Assembly (NCBI GenBank): GCA_016182365.1
Contig: JACOXO010000018.1
Span: 1 to 63,820 of the forward strand
DNA from: Candidatus Gottesmanbacteria bacterium
GTDB taxonomy: Bacteria > Patescibacteriota > Microgenomatia > JACOXO01
DNA: 63,820 nt
Direction of reading: 5' to 3'
A program made the translations under genes and the position numbers. The number at the start of each line of letters is the position of its first letter. Position 1 is the stretch's first letter. Below, in pieces: positions 3,191 through 43,644 of this stretch. The notes under the pieces were generated by a model that worked only from the letters and a program-made list of their open reading frames with translations, ran no database searches and had not been told where the DNA came from.

Positions 3191-3937
3191 CTCTAAATCT
3201 AATATATCTCCTGTTTTTATGGAATAATGTTTAGCTGCGTTGCCTAAATTAACAGCAAGCTCAAGAGTTCCACTGCTTCCCAATAAAGCAAGAGGTTCTC
3301 CTTTAGCTACATCGGCGAAAGTTCTTACAACCCGGACAGTTGCAATTTTTTCAGAGTTTTTTGAAAAAGTCAGCGATTTTCCCTCTTTAAAACCATTCTT
3401 TGCATAAATTTTTAAGTTCCCATAGCTGTCTGTATGAACAACTTGCCCCTGGATAAAGGATAATTTTGTAATTTTATTCGCATCTATCAAAGATGAACCA
3501 AAATCCTCGGGTAATTTTCTCTGAGCCAGATAAATACCTGCTTTTATAAACACGTCTCTCCCGTGGAATGTTGTTGAAATACGTGAATTTACTTTGTTCT
3601 CGTTTATCTTCCATATTTTCTTAATCCCGTCGTTTATAGCTGCTGGATACAAAAGACCATTGTCAGGTCCTACAAACCAAAACTTATTAGATCGTATGAC
3701 TATCCCGGATCTTTGGCTTCCAACCCCAGGATCAATAACACCAATATGTACAGTGTTAACAGGAGAGAATTTAGTCAAGGTAAGTATCTGAAAAGCACCT
3801 TCTGTGATGGAAAAGTCGGTTACATCATGGTTCTCAATGACCTGACCGTCAAAGTTCTCCGAAGCAAGCACAGCTTTAAGCTGTGCTGCTGCAAAACTGT
3901 CGCCAAAATCAGTCGTTATTGTAATTGTTGGTTTCAT
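3182..3937 (-). CDS. SAM hydroxide adenosyltransferase / SAM-dependent chlorinase-fluorinase family (DUF62) protein
   Basis: 251 aa. ITITTDFGDSFAAAQLKAV...HIGVIDPGVGSQRSGIVIR...FVGPDNGLL are signature blocks of the DUF62 family. Confidence 0.8.
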   Translation of the reverse strand: MKPTITITTDFGDSFAAAQLKAVLASENFDGQVIENHDVTDFSITEGAFQILTLTKFSPVNTVHIGVIDPGVGSQRSGIVIRSNKFWFVGPDNGLLYPAAINDGIKKIWKINENKVNSRISTTFHGRDVFIKAGIYLAQRKLPEDFGSSLIDANKITKLSFIQGQVVHTDSYGNLKIYAKNGFKEGKSLTFSKNSEKIATVRVVRTFADVAKGEPLALLGSSGTLELAVNLGNAAKHYSIKTGDILDLELH

Positions 3938-30195: not shown

Positions 30196-31224
30196 ATGGC
30201 GCTCTTATTTTTTATGAGGAAGTTTTTTAGTAAACGCAATATTATTATCCTTCTTATCCTTATTTTTTTAGGCGGAGGATCCTATTTCTATCAAAACAGG
30301 CAAAAAGCTCCCCAATACGAAACAAAAACCATAGAAAGTTCTTCTTTAACCAGTTATATTTCAGCCTCAGGCACTATTAACGCACAAAAATACGCTGATC
30401 TTCATTTTCAAACAGGAGGGGTTCTTTCCTGGCTTGGCGTATCAGAAGGTGATACTGTAAAATCATGGCAGGTCATTGCAACTTTGGACCAGAGAGAAGT
30501 ACATAAACAGCTTACTAAAGCCCTTCGTGACTATTCAATAGAACGGAATAAATTTGACGAAGCAAAATACGATACGTATGCCAACGAACCAGTTACTGCA
30601 ACAATCAGCCGTATTCTACAAAATAATCAGTATAATCTTGATAAAGCTGTTTTGGATGTAGAACTTCGAGACCTGTCTTTGCAATTATCACGACTATCTA
30701 CTCCAATCTCTGGAGTTGTCACACATCTTGATACGCCTGTTGCTGGAGTTAATATTACACCAGCAACAGCTTTTGTTGTTGTTGACCCCAACTCAATAGT
30801 TTTTCAGGCTGAGGTAGATGAGGTTGATGTTAGCAATGTAACAATTGGTCAAAATGTTGAAGTTTCCTTAGACAGTTATCCTAGTGAAACTTTTGCTGGC
30901 ACTGTTTCAAAAATTTCTTTTGAAGCTGTAACCTCTTCATCGGGTGGAACTACATTTTTAGTTGATATTAATCTTCCTTATAGCCAAAATTTAATGTTTA
31001 GACCAGGTATGAATGGGGATGCGCAAATTATTACCTCAGAAAAAACAGATATTATTGTTATACCTTTTAATGCAATTGTTGAGGAAGATGAAGGTAGTTT
31101 TGTTTATGTTCTGGAAAATGAAAAGAGGCTAAAACGAAAGGTAGAAACAGGTATAGAAGGGGAAGCTGAGGTTGAGATTGTCAGTGGAGTAAATTTGGGA
31201 GAAGTCATTATAATCAATCCATGA
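30196..31224 (+). CDS. HlyD/MacA-type efflux adaptor
   Basis: 342 aa. TM anchor; lipoyl-like GGVLSWLGVSEGDTVKSWQVIATLD; coiled coil; LSTPISGVVTHLD; beta-barrel and MP domains. Confidence 0.75.
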   Translation: MALLFFMRKFFSKRNIIILLILIFLGGGSYFYQNRQKAPQYETKTIESSSLTSYISASGTINAQKYADLHFQTGGVLSWLGVSEGDTVKSWQVIATLDQREVHKQLTKALRDYSIERNKFDEAKYDTYANEPVTATISRILQNNQYNLDKAVLDVELRDLSLQLSRLSTPISGVVTHLDTPVAGVNITPATAFVVVDPNSIVFQAEVDEVDVSNVTIGQNVEVSLDSYPSETFAGTVSKISFEAVTSSSGGTTFLVDINLPYSQNLMFRPGMNGDAQIITSEKTDIIVIPFNAIVEEDEGSFVYVLENEKRLKRKVETGIEGEAEVEIVSGVNLGEVIIINP

Positions 31225-31901
31225 TCGCAATTCTAAACGTCTCCAAAATCTATAAACTTGATGGTGTTGAGGTTAGAGCGGTAAATAAGATTAATTTAAC
31301 CATCAAGGAAAAAGAGTTTATAGCCATTATGGGCCCATCAGGATCGGGTAAATCAACTTTAATGCATCTTATTGGAGCTTTGGACACTCCAACATCAGGT
31401 TCCGTAATGATAGATGGTAAAGATATTGGGAAGATGAACGACGAAGAACTAGCTTTCCTCAGAAACCAAACTATTGGTTTTGTGTTTCAGCAGTTTAATC
31501 TTCTCCCTAAAACCACGTCAATAGATAATGTAATTCTACCTCTTTTATATGGTTCGACTCCATCTTCACTTAGAAAATCTCTGGCCCAGCAAATGCTGGT
31601 TAAAGTAGATCTTTCAAACAGGCTTTGTCATTTACCAAGCCAGCTTTCAGGAGGACAGCAGCAAAGGGTAGCAATAGCAAGAGCTATGGTTACAAATCCA
31701 AAAATAATACTTGCCGATGAACCAACTGGCAATTTGGATTCCAAATCCAGCGTTGAAATTATGAAATTATTTAAACAGTTGAATAAAGAAGGAAAAACAA
31801 TAATTTTAATTACTCATGAACTGACAATCGCAAAATTTGCAAAAAGAATAGTTCATATTAAAGATGGGGAGATAATTAAAAATAATAATGACTATAGATG
31901 A
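31221..31901 (+). CDS. ABC transporter ATP-binding protein (MacB/LolD type)
   Basis: 226 aa. Walker [10 protein letters not shown]; Q-loop; signature [14 protein letters not shown]; Walker B ILADEPT. ATGA overlap with the upstream gene. Confidence 0.9.
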
Positions 31902-32015
31902 TTGAAAATAGAAAATAGTGGTTGAAGCTTGAGAATAGAAAATAGACTTATCAATTTTCTATATTCTATTTTCTACAACAATCTTCTATTATCTATTATC
32001 CATCGTCAAAAATAT
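31902..32015. repeat. Intra-operon spacer with direct and inverted TAGAAAATAG motifs
   Basis: GAAAATAGAAAATAG (31904-18) and GAATAGAAAATAG (31933-45) are direct copies. CTATTTTCT (31967-75) is inverted. TCTATTATCTATTATC (31985-32000) follows. Confidence 0.5.
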
Positions 32016-33218
32016 ATGAATAAGTTTTTAGAATCGCTCTTAATTGCACTAAAATCACTGAAACGTAATAAAATACGTTCATTCTTAACCATGCTTGGGG
32101 TGATTATAGGAGTTACCTCAGTTATTCTTCTGGTTTCAATTGGCCAGGGCTTGCAAAATTATATTATCAATCAGTTTGAAGAGATGGGAACAAATCTACT
32201 TTTTGTCATGCCGGGAAAATTTCAGTTTAGAGACTCAAGAGAAGGTGGACCTCCAGGGGGCGGATCAGAAAAGTTGACACTGGATGATATTAATTATTTA
32301 GAGGCTCGGACCAGAAGGGTTAAGAGTTTTTTACCTATCGTATCCAAGACAGCTGATGTAAGTTATGGACGGGAAACTTACAACACCTTTGTTGTGGGAA
32401 CGACACAAGATTACGAACACTTAAGAAAATCTCCTGTAACATCAGGTAAGTTTTTTAACAAATCTCAGGTAATCGGAGGCAGAAGAGTTGCTGTTTTAGG
32501 AACAACAGTTGTTGAAGAAATATTTGGGACTATTGAACCTATTGATAAAAAAATTAGAGTTGATGGTACAACTTATACTGTTGTAGGCGTTTTATCAGAA
32601 AAAGGCGCAGCAGCAGGTTCTGATCAGGATGACCAAATTATTATCCCGATTGATGCTTTTGATAAACAATTTGAGCCGGGAGGAATAAGTTATGCCTACG
32701 CAGAAGTTGAAGATACAAGTGATATAACTTCTGCCCAGGAGGAAATGACCGAGATTTTAGGAAGAATTAAAAATGATGATGACTTTTCTGTTGTTGACCA
32801 AAGGGAGTTGTTATCAACAATCACTTCAATATTAGGAGTATTAACTTTAGGATTAGGAGGTATTGCGGCAATTTCTTTACTTGTTGGTGGAATTGGAATT
32901 ATGAATATTATGCTTGTATCAGTAACAGAAAGGACAAGAGAAATTGGCCTTAGAAAAGCAGTTGGTGCTACACCTAAGGTTATAAGAACACAATTCTTAA
33001 TTGAAGCAGTGATACTATCAGTTGGCGGAGGACTTATTGGAGTAATACTAGGTTCTTTAGGAACATTAGGAATATCTCAATTTTTCCCAGCATCAGTAAC
33101 TTTATGGTCAATACTACTAGCATTCGGGGTATCAGCTCTGGTAGGTGTGATATTTGGTATCGCACCGGCAATTAAAGCCTCCCGCCTTAGCCCAATCGAA
33201 GCACTAAGATATGAGTAA
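32016..33218 (+). CDS. ABC transporter permease, MacB/FtsX family
   Basis: Preferred start is the ATG at 32016 (MNKFLESLLIALKSLKRNKIRSFLTMLGVIIGV). Has a MacB periplasmic domain and FtsX C-terminal TM segments, including ERTREIGLRKAVGA. The track start 31929 (TTG) runs through the repeat spacer. Confidence 0.85.
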   Translation: MNKFLESLLIALKSLKRNKIRSFLTMLGVIIGVTSVILLVSIGQGLQNYIINQFEEMGTNLLFVMPGKFQFRDSREGGPPGGGSEKLTLDDINYLEARTRRVKSFLPIVSKTADVSYGRETYNTFVVGTTQDYEHLRKSPVTSGKFFNKSQVIGGRRVAVLGTTVVEEIFGTIEPIDKKIRVDGTTYTVVGVLSEKGAAAGSDQDDQIIIPIDAFDKQFEPGGISYAYAEVEDTSDITSAQEEMTEILGRIKNDDDFSVVDQRELLSTITSILGVLTLGLGGIAAISLLVGGIGIMNIMLVSVTERTREIGLRKAVGATPKVIRTQFLIEAVILSVGGGLIGVILGSLGTLGISQFFPASVTLWSILLAFGVSALVGVIFGIAPAIKASRLSPIEALRYE

Positions 33219-34992: not shown

Positions 34993-35002
34993 ACATTTTC
35001 TA

Positions 35003-35908
35003 GTGAGTACAATTGAATTATTAAAAAATGTAGTCTCAGCAGAAGATGCTATAAAACAACTGAAAAAACCAGTTGAAATTCCTCGTGAAGCTTTTACAGA
35101 TGGGGTTGCGGATGTTGCCTTGGTTAAAGCATATTCAGTTATATTTGATAAATTGATTGTATTGGGTACTGATATTCTGAACAGAACACCATCTCAAGCT
35201 GTTGATACAACTGGTTTAATAGAAGAAGTCGATTTAGGCGGTGATTATTATATAAAATTTAGGTATTCAAAAGACGAAAAAGGAGCAAAGAGGATGTTTG
35301 TTGGTTTTTATCAGGATGATAAAAGAGCGAAAACTAAACGCGGTTACTCAACCGAGTTTAGAATTACCGGCTCTAACAATGGTCAATCTTTATTAGCAAT
35401 AAATTCTGATGAATCAAAACTGTCTGTTACTACTGTAAATGAAGGTTCTACTATAACCACTACTGTAAGTCAGGCAAACTTTGCTAGACTTCGAAAAGGC
35501 AGTTTCTTAGAACAAGACACTGAAGTTAATTATTTAGATATTCTCCAAACATCGGAATTTCCCGATACGCTTTCTGAAATTAGATTGATAAGGAATCTAC
35601 CACCTGATCAGGAAGGTTCAGCAGCAACACTTAGTGTTATTTTATATGCAAATCCCGAAAACTATGATGGATCGGTAATTAAATATTCAGCATACTATAG
35701 TCTATTTACAGGAGCGGGTACACCAACCTCAGTTAAAAACCGTCAATCGAATGTGTTTTTACCATTTGACACAGAGCAAGAAGAGGATTTGGATAATCGA
35801 GTAGCTAAAAAGCAAAAATCTTTATCTAAGCGATTATTTAAAACTCTGGATACAGTAGCTGTAATTACAACTTTAGCAGAAAACGAGAATCCGATATTAA
35901 ACGCATAA
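35003..35908 (+). CDS. Hypothetical protein
   Basis: 301-aa ORF with a GTG start. No recognisable family. Confidence 0.5.
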   Translation: MSTIELLKNVVSAEDAIKQLKKPVEIPREAFTDGVADVALVKAYSVIFDKLIVLGTDILNRTPSQAVDTTGLIEEVDLGGDYYIKFRYSKDEKGAKRMFVGFYQDDKRAKTKRGYSTEFRITGSNNGQSLLAINSDESKLSVTTVNEGSTITTTVSQANFARLRKGSFLEQDTEVNYLDILQTSEFPDTLSEIRLIRNLPPDQEGSAATLSVILYANPENYDGSVIKYSAYYSLFTGAGTPTSVKNRQSNVFLPFDTEQEEDLDNRVAKKQKSLSKRLFKTLDTVAVITTLAENENPILNA

Positions 35909-35929
35909 TATGCTATAATTAAGCTTTAT

Positions 35930-36787
35930 ATGACATCAGCTGTAGAAAGATTACCTAAAAGTACCATAAAAATAACCATAACTCTTCCCTGGAATGAAGT
36001 TAAGAATACCTATGAACATGTGATGGAAGAGGTTATCGCAACTGCCGAAGTTTCCGGATTTAGAAAAGGTAAGGCTCCAAGAAAATTAGTTGAGGATAAA
36101 ATTGACAAAACAAAAGTTTACCAGGAAGTAATCCAACATATTGTTCCCAAAACTTATGCCGATAGTGTAAAGCAGCACGATTTAAAACCAATCGTATCTC
36201 CAAGAATTACCATAACTAAAGCCAAAGAAAATGAAGACTGGCAGTTTGAGGCTTTAACTTGTGAACAGCCGCCGGTAGTTTTGGGTAAATATAAAGAGGA
36301 GATAGCAAAACTTAAAGCAACTAAAAAAATCTGGGTACCTGGAAAAGATATTAAAAAGCAAGAAGAGGAAGAAAAAAAGGGTGTTGAACTGTCACAAGTA
36401 CTAAGGGTACTTTTAAATTCAGCTCAAGTTGAAATTCCTGATATGCTAGTTGAGAATCAGGCTAATAAAAAGTTGTCTGAGCTTGTTGACCAAGTACGCA
36501 CATTGGGCATGACTGTTGAACAATACTTAATGTCTAAAGGTATAACATCAGAGCAACTTCGGGCTCAATACGCAAGAGAAGCTGAGGAGACACTAAAGCT
36601 TGAGTTTATACTCGAATCAATAGCTGATTTGGAAAAAGTTGTTATTTCTGATAAAGAGATAGATGAGGCTATTAATGCTGTAAAAGATGAAAAAGAAAGG
36701 GCTAATCTTGGAGCTCAAAGATATTATATTAGTATGATACTTAGGCGTCAAAAAACGCTTGACAGCCTCACGAAACCTATAGTATAA
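35930..36787 (+). CDS. tig: Trigger factor lacking the PPIase domain
   Basis: 285 aa. N-terminal ribosome-binding domain with the signature GFRKGKAP. C-terminal TF arm domain. No FKBP-type insert; full-length TF is about 430 aa. Confidence 0.75.
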   Translation: MTSAVERLPKSTIKITITLPWNEVKNTYEHVMEEVIATAEVSGFRKGKAPRKLVEDKIDKTKVYQEVIQHIVPKTYADSVKQHDLKPIVSPRITITKAKENEDWQFEALTCEQPPVVLGKYKEEIAKLKATKKIWVPGKDIKKQEEEEKKGVELSQVLRVLLNSAQVEIPDMLVENQANKKLSELVDQVRTLGMTVEQYLMSKGITSEQLRAQYAREAEETLKLEFILESIADLEKVVISDKEIDEAINAVKDEKERANLGAQRYYISMILRRQKTLDSLTKPIV

Positions 36788-36794
36788 TGCCGCC

Positions 36795-37406
36795 ATGCCG
36801 CAGACTCAATCTACAAAGAAAAAGCAATCACAATTAACAAGCGACTCATTATTCGAGCAACTTCGAAGTCTTTCAGCTGGAGCGAAATCTTCTGTTAAAA
36901 ATGACCTGGTTAAGGGCGGAGCTCAGGCTGCTTGGAAGCAGTTCTGGGGTGCCGAGACTGATTCATACTCATCTGAAACTGGTGCTTCTTTTGAGAAAAT
37001 GGCACCTCCTGAGGAGGTAGAAAGAAAAGGTCCTCCTAAACGAGGTGCTTATGAAACTCGCCAGGAATTTACCGTATTTACACTAGAACAAAGACAAACT
37101 ATACAGGAAGTCCAGGCAATTAGAGCGGAACTTTTGGCAATAATTAAGACCATGAAAGACGTAGATTATGAAGTAGAAAAAGCTGTCATGGAAGTTCCTG
37201 TTAAACCAGGTGTTTATCATGTAGCGTATCTGGAAAGAATCAGAAGAGTTTTAAAGCTTATTAGGGAAAGACTTGAGGATTCCAGATTGTGGCTTAGAAT
37301 GTCTAATTCAAAGAAAAAAGCCAGAGGTTATTGGGGTATGTATAAGAAAAAAGGTACCAGTTTTGGATTATCTGGTGAAAGAACAGTTGCAACCCAAACC
37401 GGATAA
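36795..37406 (+). CDS. Hypothetical protein
   Basis: 203-aa ORF with a basic C-terminus. TATAAT ends 6 nt before the ATG. Confidence 0.5.
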   Translation: MPQTQSTKKKQSQLTSDSLFEQLRSLSAGAKSSVKNDLVKGGAQAAWKQFWGAETDSYSSETGASFEKMAPPEEVERKGPPKRGAYETRQEFTVFTLEQRQTIQEVQAIRAELLAIIKTMKDVDYEVEKAVMEVPVKPGVYHVAYLERIRRVLKLIRERLEDSRLWLRMSNSKKKARGYWGMYKKKGTSFGLSGERTVATQTG

Positions 37407-37415
37407 TATAAAAAT

Positions 37416-37910
37416 ATGCCTTCTCCTGATTTAGAATATCTACGCTTTAAAGATAGATTCCAATCAACACCTCGTAGCTTTGGAAATGAAGATGATAAGG
37501 GTATCGATTTAGGAGATGGCGCTACAATAATGATAACTAAACGCGGAAGGGATCAAGGCGTAATACCACCTGTATTCGAATTTACTATCTTTCAAGAACC
37601 AAACAGTCCAGGTGGTCCTAAATGGTCATTTATGATAGACGAACAGGGATTAAGAAGCCTTACTGTTCCAGCTGTAGTTCACAAGTCATTGCAGGCTAAT
37701 AATTTTACAGTCTCCCAGTGGGACAGCACGACAACATTAGAAGCATATAGAAATTCTCTACCCAAAGATTGTCATACTGAGGAATTTAGAGCGTTAACAA
37801 AACCTCTTATTGGTTGGGTCGAAACAATGATATCTGAAAATCATTATGTAAATCCCCCCTCTTTTTCTTTTACTGTATCACCCTTCCGTACTGACTTATC
37901 CAATTTATAG
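37416..37910 (+). CDS. Hypothetical protein
   Basis: 164-aa ORF. TAATAT ends 6 nt before the ATG. Confidence 0.5.
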   Translation: MPSPDLEYLRFKDRFQSTPRSFGNEDDKGIDLGDGATIMITKRGRDQGVIPPVFEFTIFQEPNSPGGPKWSFMIDEQGLRSLTVPAVVHKSLQANNFTVSQWDSTTTLEAYRNSLPKDCHTEEFRALTKPLIGWVETMISENHYVNPPSFSFTVSPFRTDLSNL

Positions 37911-37942
37911 ATAAAATTGTATAAAAATGGACGGTATACCGT

Positions 37943-37972
37943 TTGACAAAATAAGCAGTTGTGGAATATAAT
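37943..37972 (+). promoter_or_regulatory. Promoter: TTGACA, 18-nt spacer, TATAAT
   Basis: Consensus hexamers at 37943-48 and 37967-72, in the gap after the 37416..37910 gene. Confidence 0.65.
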
Positions 37973-37991
37973 GATTGTTAGTTTAAAAACT

Positions 37992-38069
37992 ATGAATAGA
38001 CAAAACCTTCTTATTAACGTCATTAATGTCCTCCTTATTGGAGGAATTGACGTGTTGGGAGGAATGTAA
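37992..38069 (+). CDS. Candidate leader peptide MNRQNLLINVINVLLIGGIDVLGGM (25 aa; 12 Leu/Ile/Val)
   Basis: ATG 19 nt after the -10 box. Leu, Ile and Val make up 8 of 11 codons between codons 6 and 16. The ORF contains pairing segments TCCTCC, GGAGGA and GGGAGG. The stop lies 28 nt before the terminator. Confidence 0.5.
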   Translation: MNRQNLLINVINVLLIGGIDVLGGM

Positions 38070-38097
38070 ACTAGAAACCAAATTATTAAAAAATTAC

Positions 38098-38124
38098 AAA
38101 CCTCCTAAACAGGAGGTTTTTTTA
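38098..38124 (+). terminator. Intrinsic terminator (attenuator) AAACCTCCT-AAAC-AGGAGGTTT followed by a T-tract
   Basis: 9-bp perfect stem plus 7 T. Lies between the leader ORF and the structural genes. Confidence 0.75.
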
Positions 38125-38233
38125 TGCTGTAGTTTGCGAGCTACAAGCAAGCAAATACTACAGCATAATCCTTCGAAGCGAATATTCGTCTGCGGGGACG
38201 TAGCCCACGAGACGAACATGAGCGAAGGAGGAT
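38124..38233 (+). promoter_or_regulatory. Post-terminator hairpins in the ilvA leader
   Basis: ATGCTGTAGT-N23-ACTACAGCAT (38124-38166) with a loop containing GCGA. Nested TCCTTCG...CGAAGGA enclosing TCGTCT...AGACGA (38169-38231), containing GAAGCGAAT. Confidence 0.5.
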
Positions 38234-38253
38234 AGATTAAAAGGAGAAATCTT

Positions 38254-38517
38254 ATGGAAAATGGTAAAGGAGCAAGTGCTGCAGACATAATGGCTATGAG
38301 AATAAATGGAGGTGCTATGTTTAGTATACATAAAGATGCGCTAAATGGTACTAGTCCGCAAGAACACATACAAGCAATGTATGGGAAAATGGTCCTAATC
38401 GGAAAAGTGGAAACCTTAAAACAAGACCCGTATGTTGTTGTGTATGCTAGAGTAGCAGAACGTCCAGAACCACAACCAAACAAACCTAGTACTAACGGTA
38501 AACAATTACATTTTTAA
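38254..38517 (+). CDS. Hypothetical small protein (87 aa)
   Basis: ORF with a clear SD (AAAAGGAG) 7 nt upstream. No known motif. Confidence 0.5.
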   Translation: MENGKGASAADIMAMRINGGAMFSIHKDALNGTSPQEHIQAMYGKMVLIGKVETLKQDPYVVVYARVAERPEPQPNKPSTNGKQLHF

Positions 38518-38531
38518 AGGCGGTGATATTT

Positions 38532-38780
38532 ATGAAGGAATATCAAACAGCAATTCGAAGAACAGCTGAACAACAAAAGCGAGATTGGACTAAACCATTG
38601 GGAGATATAAGAGGAACTCAGGTAGCTCAAGATGTATTTCAAGCATACGGCGAAGTTGATCCTATCATAGGTACAGTCAAAGTATTCTCAAGAGCAATGA
38701 TTGAGACTCATTTTGAGACTGATCCGAGAGAGGCGGCTGCTAGAGCGTCAAAAAGAAAACCAGGCAAACCAATAGCATAA
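38532..38780 (+). CDS. Hypothetical small protein (82 aa)
   Basis: Preferred start is the ATG at 38532, preceded by AAAGGCGGTGA; the track uses a GTG at 38523. Stop overlaps the ilvA start region. Confidence 0.5.
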   Translation: MKEYQTAIRRTAEQQKRDWTKPLGDIRGTQVAQDVFQAYGEVDPIIGTVKVFSRAMIETHFETDPREAAARASKRKPGKPIA

Positions 38781-38781
38781 T

Positions 38782-40032
38782 ATGAAAACAGATTTAACTA
38801 TTGAATCTATTGATGAGGCGAGCCTTAGACTTAAAGGAGTGGTTAAGAAAACTCCGCTTCAATACAATAAAAGGCTATCTAATCAATATAAAGCTCATGT
38901 TTATCTTAAAAGGGAAGACCTGCAGGACGTCAGATCATACAAGATAAGAGGAGCATATAATCTGATGAGTACGCTAACCCTTGATGAAAAAAAGAGCGGT
39001 GTAGTTTGTGCCAGTGCAGGAAATCATGCCCAGGGAGTGGCTTTAAGTTCTTCACTTCTTAAAATTAGATCAGTAATCTTCATGCCATCAATAACACCTT
39101 TGCAAAAAATAAATAAGGTTAAGCATTTTGGCGGGAGATTTATAACTATTAAATTAGTCGGTCAAACATATGACGAGGCAAGTCACGCTGCTAAGGAATT
39201 TTGTAAGAAAAACCATATGGTTTTTGTACATCCTTTTGACGACTTAAGAACTATTGCCGGGCAGGGGACTGTTGGCAAAGAAATATATGATCAAAAAACT
39301 GCTAGCCTCGATTATGTATTATGTCCTGTTGGCGGAGGCGGTTTAATAAGCGGAGTATCAAGTTATTTAAAGGCTAAAGACAGTAAAGTTAAAATAATTG
39401 CTGTAGAAGCAGAAGGCGCTCCAACGTTATTTGAAGCATTAAAAAATAAAAAGATCGTGGATCTCAATAAAGTAGACACTTTTGTAGATGGCACTGCAGT
39501 TAAAACATTAGGTAAAATCCCTTTTGAAATAGCAATAACTAAGGTTTTTAAATCTATTCTAGTTGCCGAGGGTAAAGTATCAACAACTATGATTGAGCTT
39601 TATCAAAATGAAGGAATAGTCACTGAGCCTGCTGGAGCTTTGTCGGTTGCTGCACTTGAGGAGATAAAAGGGGAGATTAAAGGAAAGCATGTGGTCTGTA
39701 TTATAAGTGGTGGAAACAATGATATTTTAAGATATCCAGAAATAATGGAGAGAAGCCTTGTTTATCTGGGACTGAAACATTATTTCTTAATTGAATTTGC
39801 CCAAAAGCCCGGTCAGCTTAAGAAATTTGTAAATAAAGTGCTTGGACCGACTGATGACATTGTAAGGTTTGAGTATATGAAAAAAACATCTAAAGAAAGA
39901 GGGCCTGCATTAATCGGAATTGAACTTCAGAGGAAAAAAGATCTTAAAAGACTGCTTGATAAAATGAATAAAGAGGGAATAAGATATACTAAACTGGAAA
40001 GTAGCGACCCGTTATATAGTTACTTAATATGA
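38782..40032 (+). CDS. ilvA: Threonine ammonia-lyase (threonine dehydratase), short biosynthetic type with one C-terminal regulatory domain
   Basis: 416 aa. PLP-lysine block DLQDVRSYKIRGAYN; SAGNHAQGVA; glycine loop PVGGGGLISG; C-terminal ACT-like domain. Confidence 0.9.
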   Translation: MKTDLTIESIDEASLRLKGVVKKTPLQYNKRLSNQYKAHVYLKREDLQDVRSYKIRGAYNLMSTLTLDEKKSGVVCASAGNHAQGVALSSSLLKIRSVIFMPSITPLQKINKVKHFGGRFITIKLVGQTYDEASHAAKEFCKKNHMVFVHPFDDLRTIAGQGTVGKEIYDQKTASLDYVLCPVGGGGLISGVSSYLKAKDSKVKIIAVEAEGAPTLFEALKNKKIVDLNKVDTFVDGTAVKTLGKIPFEIAITKVFKSILVAEGKVSTTMIELYQNEGIVTEPAGALSVAALEEIKGEIKGKHVVCIISGGNNDILRYPEIMERSLVYLGLKHYFLIEFAQKPGQLKKFVNKVLGPTDDIVRFEYMKKTSKERGPALIGIELQRKKDLKRLLDKMNKEGIRYTKLESSDPLYSYLI

Positions 40033-40403
40033 AATACATAGATACTAATAAAGCACCAAAAGTAGTAGGCCCCTATTCACAGGCAATAGTATCTGGGGAT
40101 TTTGTTTTCCTTTCTGGTCAAATTGGTGTTAATCCCAAAACAAATAATTTAGTTGAAGGAATTGAAAACCAGGCAAAACAAATTTTTTCCAACATAACAG
40201 AAATTTTAGAAGCTGCTGGGACCGATAAAACAAAGGTATTGAAAACAACTGTATTCATTAAAAACATTTCTGATTTTGCAAAGGTAAATGAGCTTTACGA
40301 GTCCTTCTTTGAAGGACATAAACCTGCAAGATCAACTGTTGAAGTATCCAGCTTACCCAAAGGGGCACTTATTGAAATCGATACTATTGCCTCTCTTAAA
40401 TAA
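40029..40403 (+). CDS. ridA: RidA (2-iminobutanoate/2-iminopropanoate deaminase)
   Basis: 124 aa. APKVVGPYSQAIVSGDFVFLSGQIG...KTTVFIKNISDFAKVNELY...PARSTVEVSSLPKGALIEID. ATGA overlap with ilvA. Confidence 0.9.
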   Translation: MKYIDTNKAPKVVGPYSQAIVSGDFVFLSGQIGVNPKTNNLVEGIENQAKQIFSNITEILEAAGTDKTKVLKTTVFIKNISDFAKVNELYESFFEGHKPARSTVEVSSLPKGALIEIDTIASLK

Positions 40404-40419
40404 CTAAGTTTGACAATTC

Positions 40420-40428
40420 TGATATAAT
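40420..40428 (+). promoter_or_regulatory. Extended -10 promoter element TGaTATAAT
   Basis: TG-n-TATAAT lies 8 nt upstream of the leader ATG. The nearby TTGACA (40410-15) is only 7 nt away, so it is not a functional -35. Confidence 0.45.
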
Positions 40429-40436
40429 ATATTTTT

Positions 40437-40523
40437 ATGAGTAAACAATCGTTCCAAACATTTTATTTTTGGTTTTACTTTACAGACCTCAAGTTTGGGG
40501 GGATTGTTTTGTTTAAGAAGTAA
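40437..40523 (+). CDS. Candidate leader peptide MSKQSFQTFYFWFYFTDLKFGGIVLFKK (28 aa, aromatic-rich)
   Basis: Codons 6-15 are F Q T F Y F W F Y F. The ORF is followed by an intrinsic terminator and then pheA. Confidence 0.55.
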   Translation: MSKQSFQTFYFWFYFTDLKFGGIVLFKK

Positions 40524-40547
40524 AAAGTAGAAAAATAAACAACTAAC

Positions 40548-40571
40548 AACCTCCCAAACGGGAGGTTTTTT
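40548..40571 (+). terminator. Intrinsic terminator (attenuator) AACCTCCC-AAAC-GGGAGGTT followed by T6
   Basis: 8-bp GC-rich stem plus a U-tract. The upstream TTTGGGGGG (40494-40502) can pair with its 5' arm CCTCCCAAA. Confidence 0.75.
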
Positions 40572-40573
40572 GA

Positions 40574-40707
40574 TGGGAAAGTTAACGCGATTGCGAGTTT
40601 TACTTTCCCACATCCCGCTCAGCGGGATTATGTGGTAAATAACGTAATTTTGTCCCGCGAAGCGGGACATAGAAAGACTAAACTCTAAGAATTCGTTAAG
40701 TCTTTCT
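40574..40707 (+). promoter_or_regulatory. Four post-terminator hairpins in the pheA leader
   Basis: TGGGAAAGT-N19-ACTTTCCCA (40574-40610, loop ACGCGATTGCGAG). ATCCCGC-TCA-GCGGGAT (40612-28). GTCCCGC-GAA-GCGGGAC (40652-68). AGAAAGACT-N19-AGTCTTTCT (40671-40707). Then SD AGGAGG. Confidence 0.55.
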
Positions 40708-40727
40708 TATGAAAGGAGGTGAGTTTT

Positions 40728-41582
40728 ATGACAGAAAAAGAAAAAGCCGGATTCCAAGGCATGCATGGAGCATTCAGTGATATTGCCGGAAGAAGATATT
40801 TTGATGGGAATGTATTAACTGTACCTTACGAAAGCTTCGAACGAATGATGGAAGCAGTTAGCAGAAGTAATTGCACATATGCAATTTTACCCATAGAAAA
40901 TACAGTTGCAGGAAGCATATATCAAAATTACGATCTTTTAGGAGAGTCTGGTCTAGCAGTAGTAGGTGAGGTATCTTTAAGAATTAAGCATAATCTTTTA
41001 GTAACTAATCAACCACCGCTTGATCAACAAGAAAGGATAGCGATCCTAAAAAAAGTTGGGTCTCACTTTAAAGCATTAGAACAATGTATACGATTCTTTA
41101 GGGATAATCCACATATTCAACAATCTGTCGAATTTGATACCGCAGGCTATGCGGAAGTCGTTGCGAAACAAGGCACAATTTATGACGGAGCAATTGCAAG
41201 TAAAACTGCGGCCAGACTTTATAGACTTCATGTATTAAGAGAAAACATTGAAGATAATCCAAATAATATAACCAGATTTTTAGTAGTTGGAAGAGAAAAA
41301 CAGTTATTTGGTCAAAAAGCTTCAATCAGATTTACCTTAAAACATGAACCGGGTTCTTTATCACGAGCAATCGCTGCTTTTGCCAGAGAGGGACTTAATT
41401 TAACAAAAATTGAATCTAGGCCTTTGATCGGTAGCCCGTTTGAATATTTATTCTATCTGGATTTTGAAACCGGAAATGATATGACAAGAACTGGAGTAGC
41501 CATTGAGAGTCTAGGGATGGTCGCAGATAGTTTAGACATTTTAGGTTACTATGACAAAGGGGGAATTAGTCAAGAAGATTAA
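40728..41582 (+). CDS. pheA: Prephenate dehydratase with a C-terminal ACT domain
   Basis: Preferred start is the ATG at 40728, 8 nt after AGGAGG (40714-40719); the track uses a GTG at 40719. FQGMHGAFSD...ILPIENTVAGSI...TRFLVVG... ACT domain with TKIESRPL. Confidence 0.9.
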   Translation: MTEKEKAGFQGMHGAFSDIAGRRYFDGNVLTVPYESFERMMEAVSRSNCTYAILPIENTVAGSIYQNYDLLGESGLAVVGEVSLRIKHNLLVTNQPPLDQQERIAILKKVGSHFKALEQCIRFFRDNPHIQQSVEFDTAGYAEVVAKQGTIYDGAIASKTAARLYRLHVLRENIEDNPNNITRFLVVGREKQLFGQKASIRFTLKHEPGSLSRAIAAFAREGLNLTKIESRPLIGSPFEYLFYLDFETGNDMTRTGVAIESLGMVADSLDILGYYDKGGISQED

Positions 41583-41609
41583 GTATCAAAAATTAATAAG
41601 GAGTAAAAT

Positions 41610-41876
41610 ATGTCAGTTGAAGGTGAACAACCATTATTACCCGAAGGTAATGCAACAAATAACAGTGTTTTAAATAATCATTTAGATGCTCATACAATAC
41701 CAAGTATTCCGGCAGTTGAATTTGAAGCTTTTCAGGATGTTGTGGATAATATTCCAATGCACCCATATCACAATGAACTAATACTATTTTCATTGTGGGA
41801 GGAGCGGCGCAAATCAAAAGGATGTAGGACGGATTTACAACTTCAGCCAATAAAACCTAAACAAACAAAAAAGTAA
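41610..41876 (+). CDS. Hypothetical small protein (88 aa)
   Basis: ORF with SD AAGGAG 7 nt upstream. No known motif. Confidence 0.45.
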   Translation: MSVEGEQPLLPEGNATNNSVLNNHLDAHTIPSIPAVEFEAFQDVVDNIPMHPYHNELILFSLWEERRKSKGCRTDLQLQPIKPKQTKK

Positions 41877-41900
41877 GACTGGACTGATATAATTAAAGTT

Positions 41901-42965
41901 ATGAACCCGCAAATTTTATATGACATTTTTGAAAAAGCAGGAAAAGCAAGGGCATCGGGAAAAGATGTTATTAAACTTAATGTAGGTGAACCGGAACAAA
42001 GTCCTCCTAAAGAATTGTTTAAGGCAATTGAGAAGTCTTTAAAATCAGGTCGCACTACTTATGGTTCTGCTAGTGGTGATCCAAATTTAAGAGAACTTTT
42101 GGCAAAAGAGCATGGAATAAAACCAGAAAATGTTTTAATAGGTCCGGGATCTAAGTTTTTGATTTTTGCCACTCTTAAATTATTATCAAAGACGAAAGGA
42201 AAAATAATAATTCCTCTTCCGGCCTGGAGTGCATTTTCACTAATGTTTAAAGATTTGGGCATTAATAATATCCATTACCTAAAAACCACTGAAAAAAATA
42301 ACTGGCAAATAAATATTTCTGATTTAGAGAAAGTGGTTAGAGGATCAATTATTATTACCAATCCAAATAACCCCACAAGTACTTTATTTGATTATGCTTC
42401 TATCTTAAAAATATGTAAAAGAAATAGAATAAAAATAATTAAAGACTGTGCATATCAGGACTTAACTTTCTATGAAATAAAAAATAAGGTGGACTTAGAA
42501 AATACTATTGAGATTCACAGCTTTTCAAAAAAATTCTGTATGACTGGGTTTAGAATAGGGTATATGTTAGCAAACTCTACTATAGTTTCAGCCTTAACTA
42601 AGTTTATGCAGATAACAATAAGTAACGTCCCCCTATTTATTCAAGACGGTGCTTACCATCTTCTTAAAACAAATAAAAGTTTTCCAAGAAAAGTAGCATC
42701 TGTTTATAAAAAAAGGGTAGAGGTAATAGGCAAAATTTTAACAGATAATAATGTTACATTTGTTAAACCAAATGCCGGATTCTATATTTTTGCAAATATA
42801 GGAAGGCCCAGTGAAAAATTATGTTTAGAACTAATTGATAAAGGGGTAGCTTTTGTCCCAGGTACAGCTTTTGGTCCATACCCAAATTACATAAGGATAT
42901 CATTAACTGAAGACGAGAATAGGCTTAAAAAAGGAATTAATATTCTCATAAAGAATCTGAATTAA
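41901..42965 (+). CDS. Class I/II pyridoxal-phosphate aminotransferase (aspartate/aromatic type)
   Basis: 354 aa. NVGEPEQSPP; NPNNPTS; PLP-lysine block HSFSKKFCMTGFRIGY; FVPGTAFG..IRISL. TGaTATAAT ends 7 nt before the ATG. Confidence 0.85.
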   Translation: MNPQILYDIFEKAGKARASGKDVIKLNVGEPEQSPPKELFKAIEKSLKSGRTTYGSASGDPNLRELLAKEHGIKPENVLIGPGSKFLIFATLKLLSKTKGKIIIPLPAWSAFSLMFKDLGINNIHYLKTTEKNNWQINISDLEKVVRGSIIITNPNNPTSTLFDYASILKICKRNRIKIIKDCAYQDLTFYEIKNKVDLENTIEIHSFSKKFCMTGFRIGYMLANSTIVSALTKFMQITISNVPLFIQDGAYHLLKTNKSFPRKVASVYKKRVEVIGKILTDNNVTFVKPNAGFYIFANIGRPSEKLCLELIDKGVAFVPGTAFGPYPNYIRISLTEDENRLKKGINILIKNLN

Positions 42966-43644
42966 CAGGTGGAGTTTTAGCAATAACCTCCCACCATTGT
43001 TCACCTTCTAGCTCGTCACGATTTATTGAAACAGTAATGTCAGTAAAACCAGCATTCTGTAATGTTTTATTTATTTGTTCTCTAGATGAAAATAATAAAT
43101 TATTCTCCTTCAGGTATGACCAATAACCACGAACATCTTTATTGTCTGCTTGATTGAGGTCTTCGGGAATCATTGAAGGATGATGCAAATAAAAAATTGC
43201 AATTCCATAGTTTGCAAGGACTCTATAAGCTTCATTGATTGCAACCCTGGGCATAAAGTCAATTGCGTGATTACTAAATACAAGTCCAAATTTAGAATCG
43301 GGAAAAGGCAAAATAGTACCATCTGCCGGAACATGATCAACTTTATATTTTTTTGCCAGAAGTCTTGCTTTGGCAATTCTTGCTTTATCCAGAGAAAAGA
43401 AATTATAGCGGGTAGGATACTTAATACGACGCATATCTAATAACTGCTTCTCTATTGATTGTGGACCAGAGCCTATGTCTAGAATATTTGGAATAGGTAT
43501 ACCGCCAATCAGATAATTTTTAATTCTTTGTGTCATACTAACCCTGCTTTGATCTGGACTATCGTGTTTGTAAAGAACACGATTATAGTTTAATGCATAA
43601 CCTTGAAGTAAAGATTGTTCTGGCGTAAGTTGTGTGTTTTCCAT
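42946..43644 (-). CDS. Class I SAM-dependent methyltransferase
   Basis: 232 aa. Motif I ILDIGSGPQSIEKQL; FGLVFSNHAIDFMP. Abuts the PEPC stop. Confidence 0.65.
   Translation of the reverse strand: MENTQLTPEQSLLQGYALNYNRVLYKHDSPDQSRVSMTQRIKNYLIGGIPIPNILDIGSGPQSIEKQLLDMRRIKYPTRYNFFSLDKARIAKARLLAKKYKVDHVPADGTILPFPDSKFGLVFSNHAIDFMPRVAINEAYRVLANYGIAIFYLHHPSMIPEDLNQADNKDVRGYWSYLKENNLLFSSREQINKTLQNAGFTDITVSINRDELEGEQWWEVIAKTPPVNSDSL

Follow-up and report, generated by a model that had tools for sequence, protein, structure and literature searches.

In Escherichia coli, the ilvGMEDA and ilvBN operons are preceded by leaders (ilvL and ivbL, respectively) in which a promoter-proximal short open reading frame (ORF) rich in Leu, Val and Ile codons is combined with mutually exclusive 1:2, 2:3 and 3:4 hairpins and an intrinsic terminator, the position of the ribosome selecting the fold; ilvA is among the genes regulated in this way. 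Classical attenuators are thought to decide kinetically, with 2:3 forming before segment 4 has been made. In the Bacillus ilv-leu T-box leader, the choice between terminator and antiterminator is made by transfer RNA (tRNA) charging, again ahead of branched-chain amino-acid genes. Here, we describe a predicted attenuator that matches the E. coli design, upstream of the threonine ammonia-lyase gene ilvA in a stretch of 63,820 nt (35% GC; the whole stretch analyzed is referred to below as the window) from a member of the Microgenomates within the Patescibacteria, or candidate phyla radiation (CPR). These bacteria have tiny genomes, few recognizable regulators and little biosynthetic capacity and, to our knowledge, almost nothing is known about their gene regulation.

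The leader in the window has no sequence similarity to ilvL or ivbL, its ORF is shorter (25 codons) and its host is a CPR bacterium; it also lacks a Shine-Dalgarno sequence, has a short 5' untranslated region, carries an extra hairpin nested in the 1:2 stem and is separated from ilvA by two orphan genes. It differs from the Bacillus T-box leader in being only ~140 nt long and in containing an ORF, and no T-box match was found in 37400-38900 even at E ≤ 10. Neither the window nor any of 12 related loci gave an Rfam match at gathering score. The best window match was His_leader (RF00514; 34 bits versus a gathering score of 49) and Phe_leader (RF01859) reached 29 bits versus 55; both share the general architecture with the window leader, and these sub-threshold matches reflect the hairpin-hairpin-terminator geometry only, as the codon content differs.

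Outside the Proteobacteria, the same logic has been tested experimentally in the same pathway for the three-hairpin attenuator of Corynebacterium glutamicum ilvBNC (PMC11857589), the leucine-rich attenuator peptide of Staphylococcus aureus ilv-leu (PMC5794164) and the Listeria ilv leader (PMC5864092). The lineages, leaders and operon contents of these systems are unrelated to those of the window, whose attenuator is a computational prediction. As of 2010, leader peptides were described as known from Proteobacteria and Actinobacteria, the Firmicutes being a new addition (PMC2965389), and our full-text literature searches returned no paper that connects leader peptides or transcription attenuation with Patescibacteria or the candidate phyla radiation. 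Because the mechanism itself is textbook, the gain is one of phylogenetic reach, not of principle: what would be new is its occurrence in a phylum with largely uncharted gene regulation.

Our reading of the locus, to which we assign a probability of about 0.78, is that a ribosome-mediated leader-peptide attenuator responds to how much charged tRNA is available for Leu, Ile and Val and controls read-through into the genes ORF1-ORF2-ilvA-ridA.

Architecture of the leader

The consensus promoter and terminator scan covered positions 35000-43000, and the sequence was read over 37700-38900. The elements of the leader are as follows, with MFE denoting the minimum free energy structure.

37943..37972, + strand: sigma-70-type promoter, TTGACA-N18-TATAAT, 12/12 consensus match
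37992..38069, + strand: leader ORF, 25 codons, MNRQNLLINVINVLLIGGIDVLGGM (ATG at 37992, TAA at 38067-69)
38006..38011, + strand: segment 1, CCUUCU, codons 5-7; pairs with segment 2 to give the protector stem
38018..38052, + strand: hairpin B, within the ORF; the inner stem UCCUCC/GGAGGA (38029-34 with 38040-45) is conserved, the outer stem is window-specific
38055..38062, + strand: segment 2, UUGGGAGG, codons 22-24, the antiterminator 5' strand; pairs with 38101-38108 in the MFE structure
38098..38124, + strand: intrinsic terminator; segment 3 at 38098-38106, loop at 38107-10, segment 4 at 38111-19, then the U run

The promoter, with TTGACA at 37943-48, an 18-nt spacer and TATAAT at 37967-72, is present exactly as the original prediction had described it and is one of two 12/12 matches in the scanned region. 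Transcription would be expected to start near 37979, leaving a 5' untranslated region of ~12 nt ahead of the leader ATG. The −10 box overlaps a further in-frame ATG (37971), which only transcripts starting further upstream would use. The second 12/12 promoter (36759-36788) falls within the trigger factor gene, at its 3' end, and shortly precedes the DUF5660 gene. Directly next to the −35 box of the leader promoter is a perfect palindrome of 12 nt, ACGGTATACCGT (37931-37942), which could be a weak terminator of the upstream gene or an operator; the notion of a repeated operator was rejected, there being no second exact copy in the window.

The coordinates and translation of the leader ORF likewise proved correct, as did the overall count of branched-chain residues: five Leu, four Ile and three Val, or 12 of 25. 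Codons 6-16 are denser in these residues than had been proposed, with nine Leu, Ile or Val at the 11 positions instead of eight. The Ile codons are the common ATT, and rare codons occur for Val (GTC twice and GTG once) and Leu (CTC), which account for 9%, 10% and 3% of their families genome-wide, respectively; codon choice here is also constrained by the RNA pairings described below.

The proposed hairpin inside the ORF, UCCUCC-UUAUU-GGAGGA, was located at 38030-46 and, folded alone, forms a 5-bp stem (CCUCC/GGAGG) of −8.6 kcal/mol. A second GGGAGG (38057-62) does precede the stop codon as proposed, although it begins one base before codon 23, with the last base of codon 22. The predicted terminator and its T run were recovered at 38098-38124: the hairpin AAACCUCCU-AAAC-AGGAGGUUU (38098-38119) has a 9-bp stem of −11.4 kcal/mol, and the U run extends to 38124. 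On the + strand of the 64 kb, the pattern CCTCC-N6-GGAGGTTTT occurs at two sites, this terminator and the terminator of a second leader at pheA, against a chance expectation of 0.02 matches over both strands.

Alternative folds and the effect of a leader ribosome

In the MFE structure of the leader, UUGGGAGG (38055-62) pairs with CCUCCUAA (38101-08), the antiterminator 3' strand, which comprises part of segment 3 plus two loop bases. The terminator is excluded from this structure because segment 2 is paired with the terminator 5' arm, the very interaction that had been proposed for the second GGAGG segment. The fold z-score of the leader is −5.1. In folds of the growing transcript up to 38097, 38006-11 pairs instead with 38057-62, forming the 1:2 stem with hairpin B enclosed. 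The 1:2 stem with hairpin B (38003-38065) amounts to −24.6 kcal/mol, of which the hairpin B region (38018-38054) gives −14.9 kcal/mol on its own, and the 2:3 antiterminator and the 3:4 terminator, each taken alone, come to −12.0 and −11.4 kcal/mol, respectively. Globally, 1:2 plus 3:4 (−38.3 kcal/mol) and 2:3 plus 1:4 (−39.8 kcal/mol) differ little in energy, as one would expect if the switch is settled by kinetics. The 1:4 pairing seen in the MFE structure (38002-11 with 38111-20) was considered as a functional element and rejected, as three of its ten pairs are broken in the related locus L164.

The effect of a translating ribosome was modeled by masking a 30-nt footprint at each codon and taking the probability of the terminator stem from the partition function. 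With no ribosome, the terminator probability is 0.07. With the aminoacyl (A) site at codons 1-4 it is 0.78-0.93, and 0.60 at codon 5; over codons 6-18 it does not exceed 0.12, and from codon 19 to the stop it returns to 0.93-0.94. The anti-termination interval of codons 6-18 takes in nine of the 12 Leu, Ile and Val codons. The pattern is robust to five footprint sizes and also to leaving out the U tail, although it erodes somewhat at codons 12 and 14-17, and the ribosome-position switch was reproduced by none of 240 dinucleotide-preserving shuffles of the stretch from the ATG to the terminator. Alternative-structure folding, which the original prediction had put forward as a check, returned mutually exclusive folds between which, in the model, the ribosome position decides.

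Given these elements and pairings, and the conservation, covariation and gene order described below, transcription start, leader translation, stalling and termination would be linked as follows. Transcripts starting near 37979 would have their 25-codon leader translated at once, and segment 1 (38006-11) of the nascent RNA would pair with segment 2 (38055-62) around hairpin B. When the branched-chain amino acids are in good supply, the ribosome would reach the end of the ORF and cover segment 2; the 3:4 terminator would then form and transcription would stop at ~38124. A ribosome stalled on the Leu, Ile and Val codons at 6-16 would instead melt the 1:2 stem and hairpin B, leaving segment 2 free to pair with segment 3 once this had been transcribed, so that no terminator could form and the operon would be transcribed.

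Conservation in two close relatives

Searched exhaustively with HMMER, ORF1, which is the first structural gene behind the attenuator, gave one real homolog, P0003, at 51% identity, and a further contig came from the DUF5660 cluster. Two other HMMER matches, P0004 and P0005, were judged spurious, being repeat or low-complexity proteins, and three contigs with an identical ORF1 represent the same population and add no information. Both related loci, L164 and L165, have the layout DUF5660 gene, promoter, leader, terminator, ribosome-binding site and ORF1 homolog, and in both the last part of the DUF5660 gene overlaps the leader promoter. Their leader peptides compare with that of the window as follows.

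Window: MNRQNLLINVINVLLIGGIDVLGGM
L165: MKNLNLLIINVLLIGGVNVLGGM
L164: MKNLNLLIINVLLIGGINVVGGKAS

The three peptides share the pattern NLLI-NVLLIGGI-V-GG. The only indel among the leaders is 6 nt long and keeps the reading frame, and changes within the Leu/Ile/Val core are either synonymous (CTT/CTC, GTG/GTT) or exchange one of these residues for another. The pairings are preserved as well. All nine terminator pairs are held in the relatives, three of them through two-sided changes, with compensatory pairs seen in L164. All eight antiterminator pairs are held in the three sequences, with one double change and two wobble changes. The double change, from U-A to G-C, has as its 3' partner position 38108, which is a base of the terminator loop and as such serves no purpose in the terminator itself. 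The 1:2 stem keeps six of six pairs in the three sequences. In hairpin B, five of the six inner-stem pairs are invariant and one is unpaired in L165, and the outer stem, created by an AACGTC insertion, exists in the window only. On this alignment, the sequence evidence for the three pairings (1:2, 2:3 and 3:4) is good.

Isoleucine-run leaders in distant relatives

No relative of the window ilvA above 67% identity was found in genome or metagenome collections; the best matches are from the Microgenomates (Daviesbacteria, Roizmanbacteria and Levybacteria). Ile-rich or mixed Leu/Ile/Val leaders with terminators recur in the Microgenomates before ilvA, ridA-ilvA or ilvB-...-ilvA, and were collected from L001, L003, L004, L009, L014, L030, L031, L037, L059, L068, L071 and L118, and from Solitalea (L063 and L074). 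Representative peptides are listed below.

L004: MTRQIIIIGIIIAP
L037: MVAQKFIIEIIIAP
L009: MNSLFVNTIIISIITR
L014: MKHFINSIIIIISAYPRAA
L030: MVVQLKLRIFIAISTR
L031: MRNVKQISIIAISNRM
L118: MNTELMIAVIIITEGGGER
L001: MKNNFVIIALVLIHPV
L059: MLQKSILMIIVVGVLRKEGSFA
L063/L074 (Solitalea): MKNLSTIITVIIIIVVIIHT

Runs of this kind are rare by chance: at least five Ile in eight residues occurs in 0.28% of 7952 short ORFs, and background rates for Ile runs in short ORFs lie between 0.28 and 1.5%. Promoters comparable to that of the window stand directly 5' of the leader ORF in L164 and L165 (TTGCAA-N17-TAATAT in both), and in L003, L004, L037, L001 and L059. A ribosome-position switch is predicted in most of the distant leaders, the exceptions being L063, L118 and L072. 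Across 13 leaders, segment 2 pairs with its own terminator arm at a mean of −10.7 kcal/mol versus −8.9 kcal/mol for non-cognate arms, and the cognate set of duplexes was matched or beaten by 21 of 20,000 permutations.

The distant leaders differ from that of the window in being 12-22 codons long and nearly pure Ile, with the ORF stop between segments 1 and 2; the window leader has a longer ORF that combines Leu, Ile and Val and continues through segment 2. The likeness lies in the terminators, which in L003, L004 and L037 are of the same CCUCC/GGAGG type, and in position, L003, L030 and L037 having their leaders at the syntenic place behind the trigger factor gene. The order trigger factor - DUF5660 - leader - ilvA - ridA is common to the window, L003 and L037 (a Levybacteria chromosome); L030 shares trigger factor - leader - ilvA - ridA, and a DUF5660 match was not found there. 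In many relatives ridA adjoins ilvA, and in most others it lies within a few kb. The comparative search for a branched-chain-rich ORF upstream of ilvA that the original prediction had proposed thus found the Leu/Ile/Val core kept in L164 and L165 and Ile-run leaders before ilvA elsewhere, and branched-chain-sensing attenuation, its central claim, is supported by the mask switch, the 1:2 stem, the conserved frame and pairs, and these Ile-run leaders.

Several further features of the relatives were recorded. In L003, L004, L030, L037 and L059, no more than 6-7 nt separate the −10 hexamer from the leader ATG, and these leaders are therefore probably on leaderless mRNA. In L096 (~240-300), which carries the closest metagenomic ilvA (67% identity), an Ile-rich ORF, MQTIISPIISII, overlaps the stop of an upstream ORF whose product resembles those of the ORFs preceding the L009 and L031 leaders and may be ilvC; 3' of the Ile-rich ORF, a hairpin, TCCCGC-TTAG-CGGGA, without a U run stands 13 nt before the ilvA ATG, and this arrangement may be a translational, not a transcriptional, variant. 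Second Leu/Ile/Val-rich short ORFs with a terminator-like hairpin occur upstream of the ilvA leader promoter in L037 (MKKVIYSLVVLLIAP, ~3630-3740) and L004 (MSKSLNLCYVILMTP, ~95-190), and each pair of units could be a tandem of leader-like elements. Upstream of ilvA in L004 (~690-790), L009, L010, L013, L015, L019 and L024, hairpins of the form TGTCATTCC...GGAATGACA recur, with the appearance of small palindromic mobile elements of one family.

The putative downstream operon

As originally described, two small ORFs, the threonine dehydratase gene and ridA follow the leader.

38125..38235, + strand: hairpin block, 111 nt, GC 0.46, between the terminator and the ORF1 ribosome-binding site
38254..38517, + strand: ORF1, 87 amino acids, orphan family, first structural gene after the attenuator, GGAG ribosome-binding site
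38532..38780, + strand: ORF2, 82 amino acids, orphan; its stop is 1 nt before the ilvA start codon
38782..40032, + strand: ilvA, threonine ammonia-lyase with one C-terminal regulatory domain (PALP + Thr_dehydrat_C)
40029..40403, + strand: ridA (PF01042, E = 3.4e-40), with a 4-nt overlap with the end of ilvA

The ilvA product is a true IlvA equivalog, scoring 610.7 bits against NF006390 (cut-off 421). Its gene has no Shine-Dalgarno sequence of its own and starts 1 nt after the ORF2 stop, and no promoter-like or terminator-like site was found on the + strand from 38125 to the ilvA start in the scan. ORF1, ORF2, ilvA and ridA may be co-transcribed from the leader.

Neither ORF1 nor ORF2 has a significant Pfam, PHROG or NCBIfam match, and a word-indexed protein search returned only the queries. 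ORF1 resembles host genes in base composition (GC 0.55/0.38/0.23 at the first, second and third codon positions), as does ORF2 at the third position (0.23). A single-sequence AlphaFold model of ORF1 (predicted local distance difference test, pLDDT, 69) gave no PDB fold match better than E = 0.25, and the ORF2 model was too poor for use. No ORF2 homolog was found among 5.8 billion proteins. ORF1 has three members among about 15 billion proteins, each the first gene after this leader, with that of L164 at 51% identity by HMMER (49% in the alignment). Behind the ORF1 homolog, L164 carries two small ORFs (663-1236; 85 and 93 amino acids) that are not homologous to ORF2; small genes that change fast seem to accumulate at this position behind the attenuator.

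The hairpin block is predicted to fold into two very stable hairpins (38123-38167 and 38168-38233; z = −7.6). It is missing from L164 and L165, in which the ORF1 ribosome-binding site follows ~25-35 nt after the terminator, and is therefore an insertion in the window lineage, outside the conserved attenuator. A role as riboswitch, second regulator or repeat element was rejected: the block has no Rfam match, no copy elsewhere in the window or in the loci searched, and is absent from the close relatives. The presence of TTTTTTTATGCT in L003 and L030 suggested that ATGCTGTAG (38125-33) might be a vestige of an ancestral ilvA start; this idea too was rejected, because the closer L165 and L164 lack it and ATGCTGTAG is the 5' arm of an inserted hairpin. 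A 164-amino-acid gene with no family match (37416-37910), between the DUF5660 gene and the leader, is likewise absent from L164 and L165 and therefore a window-lineage insertion.

Weighing the attenuator against other explanations

Several results weigh against an ilvA attenuator. The leader ORF has no Shine-Dalgarno sequence, and richness in Leu, Ile and Val is weak evidence when taken alone: of the window's 517 short ATG ORFs, 3.1% reach the 48% of the leader, which makes this a ~3% event in an AT-rich genome. The covariation rests on three sequences, and the corresponding shuffle controls are weak for that reason (17/500 and 175/500). The equilibrium mask model gives no clean switch in L164, in which the terminator (−14.1 kcal/mol) outweighs 2:3 (−10.0 kcal/mol), and a messy one in L165; in the model, the clean switch of the window owes something to weak auxiliary pairings, and a real switch must therefore be kinetic, with 2:3 forming before segment 4. 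The L164 and L165 contigs end before any ilvA could appear. In the window, two orphan genes stand between the attenuator and ilvA, so that the gene directly controlled is ORF1, and no further ilv or leu genes were found in the 64 kb. Finally, relatives that regulate ilvA alone use Ile runs, whereas the window leader mixes Leu, Ile and Val.

The strongest alternative accepts the attenuator and takes ORF1 as its conserved target, with the link to the isoleucine pathway incidental or ilvA expressed mainly by other means. An ORF1 homolog stands directly after the terminator in all three genomes that share the leader, and in L164, where ilvA is beyond the contig end as in L165, unrelated small ORFs replace ORF2. 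We nonetheless consider it unlikely. Nothing resembling a promoter or terminator separates ORF1 from ilvA, which is 1 nt from ORF2 and has no Shine-Dalgarno sequence; the codon content of the leader fits the ilvA pathway; and in the syntenic L003, L037 and L030 the leader directly precedes ilvA. For this last reason, an ilvA attenuator behind which small genes were later inserted is the most economical history.

That the unit from promoter to terminator stands on its own, as the gene of a small hydrophobic peptide or of a small RNA, appears improbable. Its own promoter, a good terminator and a peptide well conserved in three genomes would suit such a gene, yet the conserved bases are exactly those that build 1:2, 2:3 and 3:4, with compensatory changes that preserve pairing, and an antiterminator 5' strand in the last codons would be needless. 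In addition, the peptides at the same place in distant relatives are unrelated and share only their Ile runs, and the downstream genes have no other promoter.

A switch set by an RNA-binding protein, by uncharged tRNA as T-boxes are, or by a metabolite, with the ORF fortuitous, is very improbable. It would sit well with the missing Shine-Dalgarno sequence, with the failure of the equilibrium model in L164 and L165, and with the T-box regulation that is established for ilv-leu in Firmicutes. Against it, no T-box, riboswitch or other Rfam family matches at gathering score in the window or the 12 related loci, ~140 nt is too short for a T-box, the frame of the ORF survives the 6-nt indel, its substitutions stay within Leu, Ile and Val, and the Ile runs of the relatives are far above background. 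A chance combination of an AT-rich short ORF with the terminator of some upstream transcript has next to no probability: the region has no excess of promoter-like sites (29 found versus 25.9 expected) and branched-chain-rich ORFs arise at the ~3% noted above, but the switch appeared in 0/240 shuffles, the leader folds with a z-score of −5.1, conservation and covariation are seen in relatives, and the same design recurs at pheA.

A second leader at pheA and implications

An analogous leader, rich in Phe, Tyr and Trp and with a terminator of the same type, precedes pheA, 2.3 kb downstream. This attenuator-like unit (40411-40573) comprises an extended −10 promoter (TGaTATAAT, 40420-28), the leader ORF MSKQSFQTFYFWFYFTDLKFGGIVLFKK (40437-40523) and the terminator AACCTCCC-AAAC-GGGAGGTT (40548-67). 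In its MFE structure, GUUUGGGGGG within the ORF pairs with the terminator arm, and in the mask model the terminator reopens with the ribosome at the stop codon. The spacer between its terminator and the ribosome-binding site (40568-40731) is a chain of very stable hairpins (z = −5.6), paralleling the 38125-38235 block, to which it has no sequence similarity.

If both the ilvA and the pheA attenuators are real, CPR bacteria sense tRNA charging via the ribosome, rely on coupled transcription and translation, and actively tune the few amino-acid pathway steps that they retain. The collected relatives could seed a new RNA family model, and the leaders could be used to re-annotate short "hypothetical protein" calls upstream of CPR ilv genes. 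A bolder proposal, which we regard as doubtful, is that ORF1, as a fast-evolving family of small orphan proteins followed by non-homologous small ORFs, was captured by the attenuator, ORF1 being an unrecognized partner in isoleucine metabolism or IlvA regulation, and that the often leaderless Ile-leader attenuators form an undescribed, phylum-wide class of RNA; such a class would imply that tight transcription-translation coupling operates in CPR bacteria.

Elsewhere in the window, an AT-rich inverted repeat (31882-32015; 65-nt arms, 72% complementary, with 4 nt between them) covers both the end of one ORF (31221-31901) and the start, as called mechanically, of another (31929-33218). Long AT-rich palindromes that resemble it are found between ridA and ilvA in L005 and L006.

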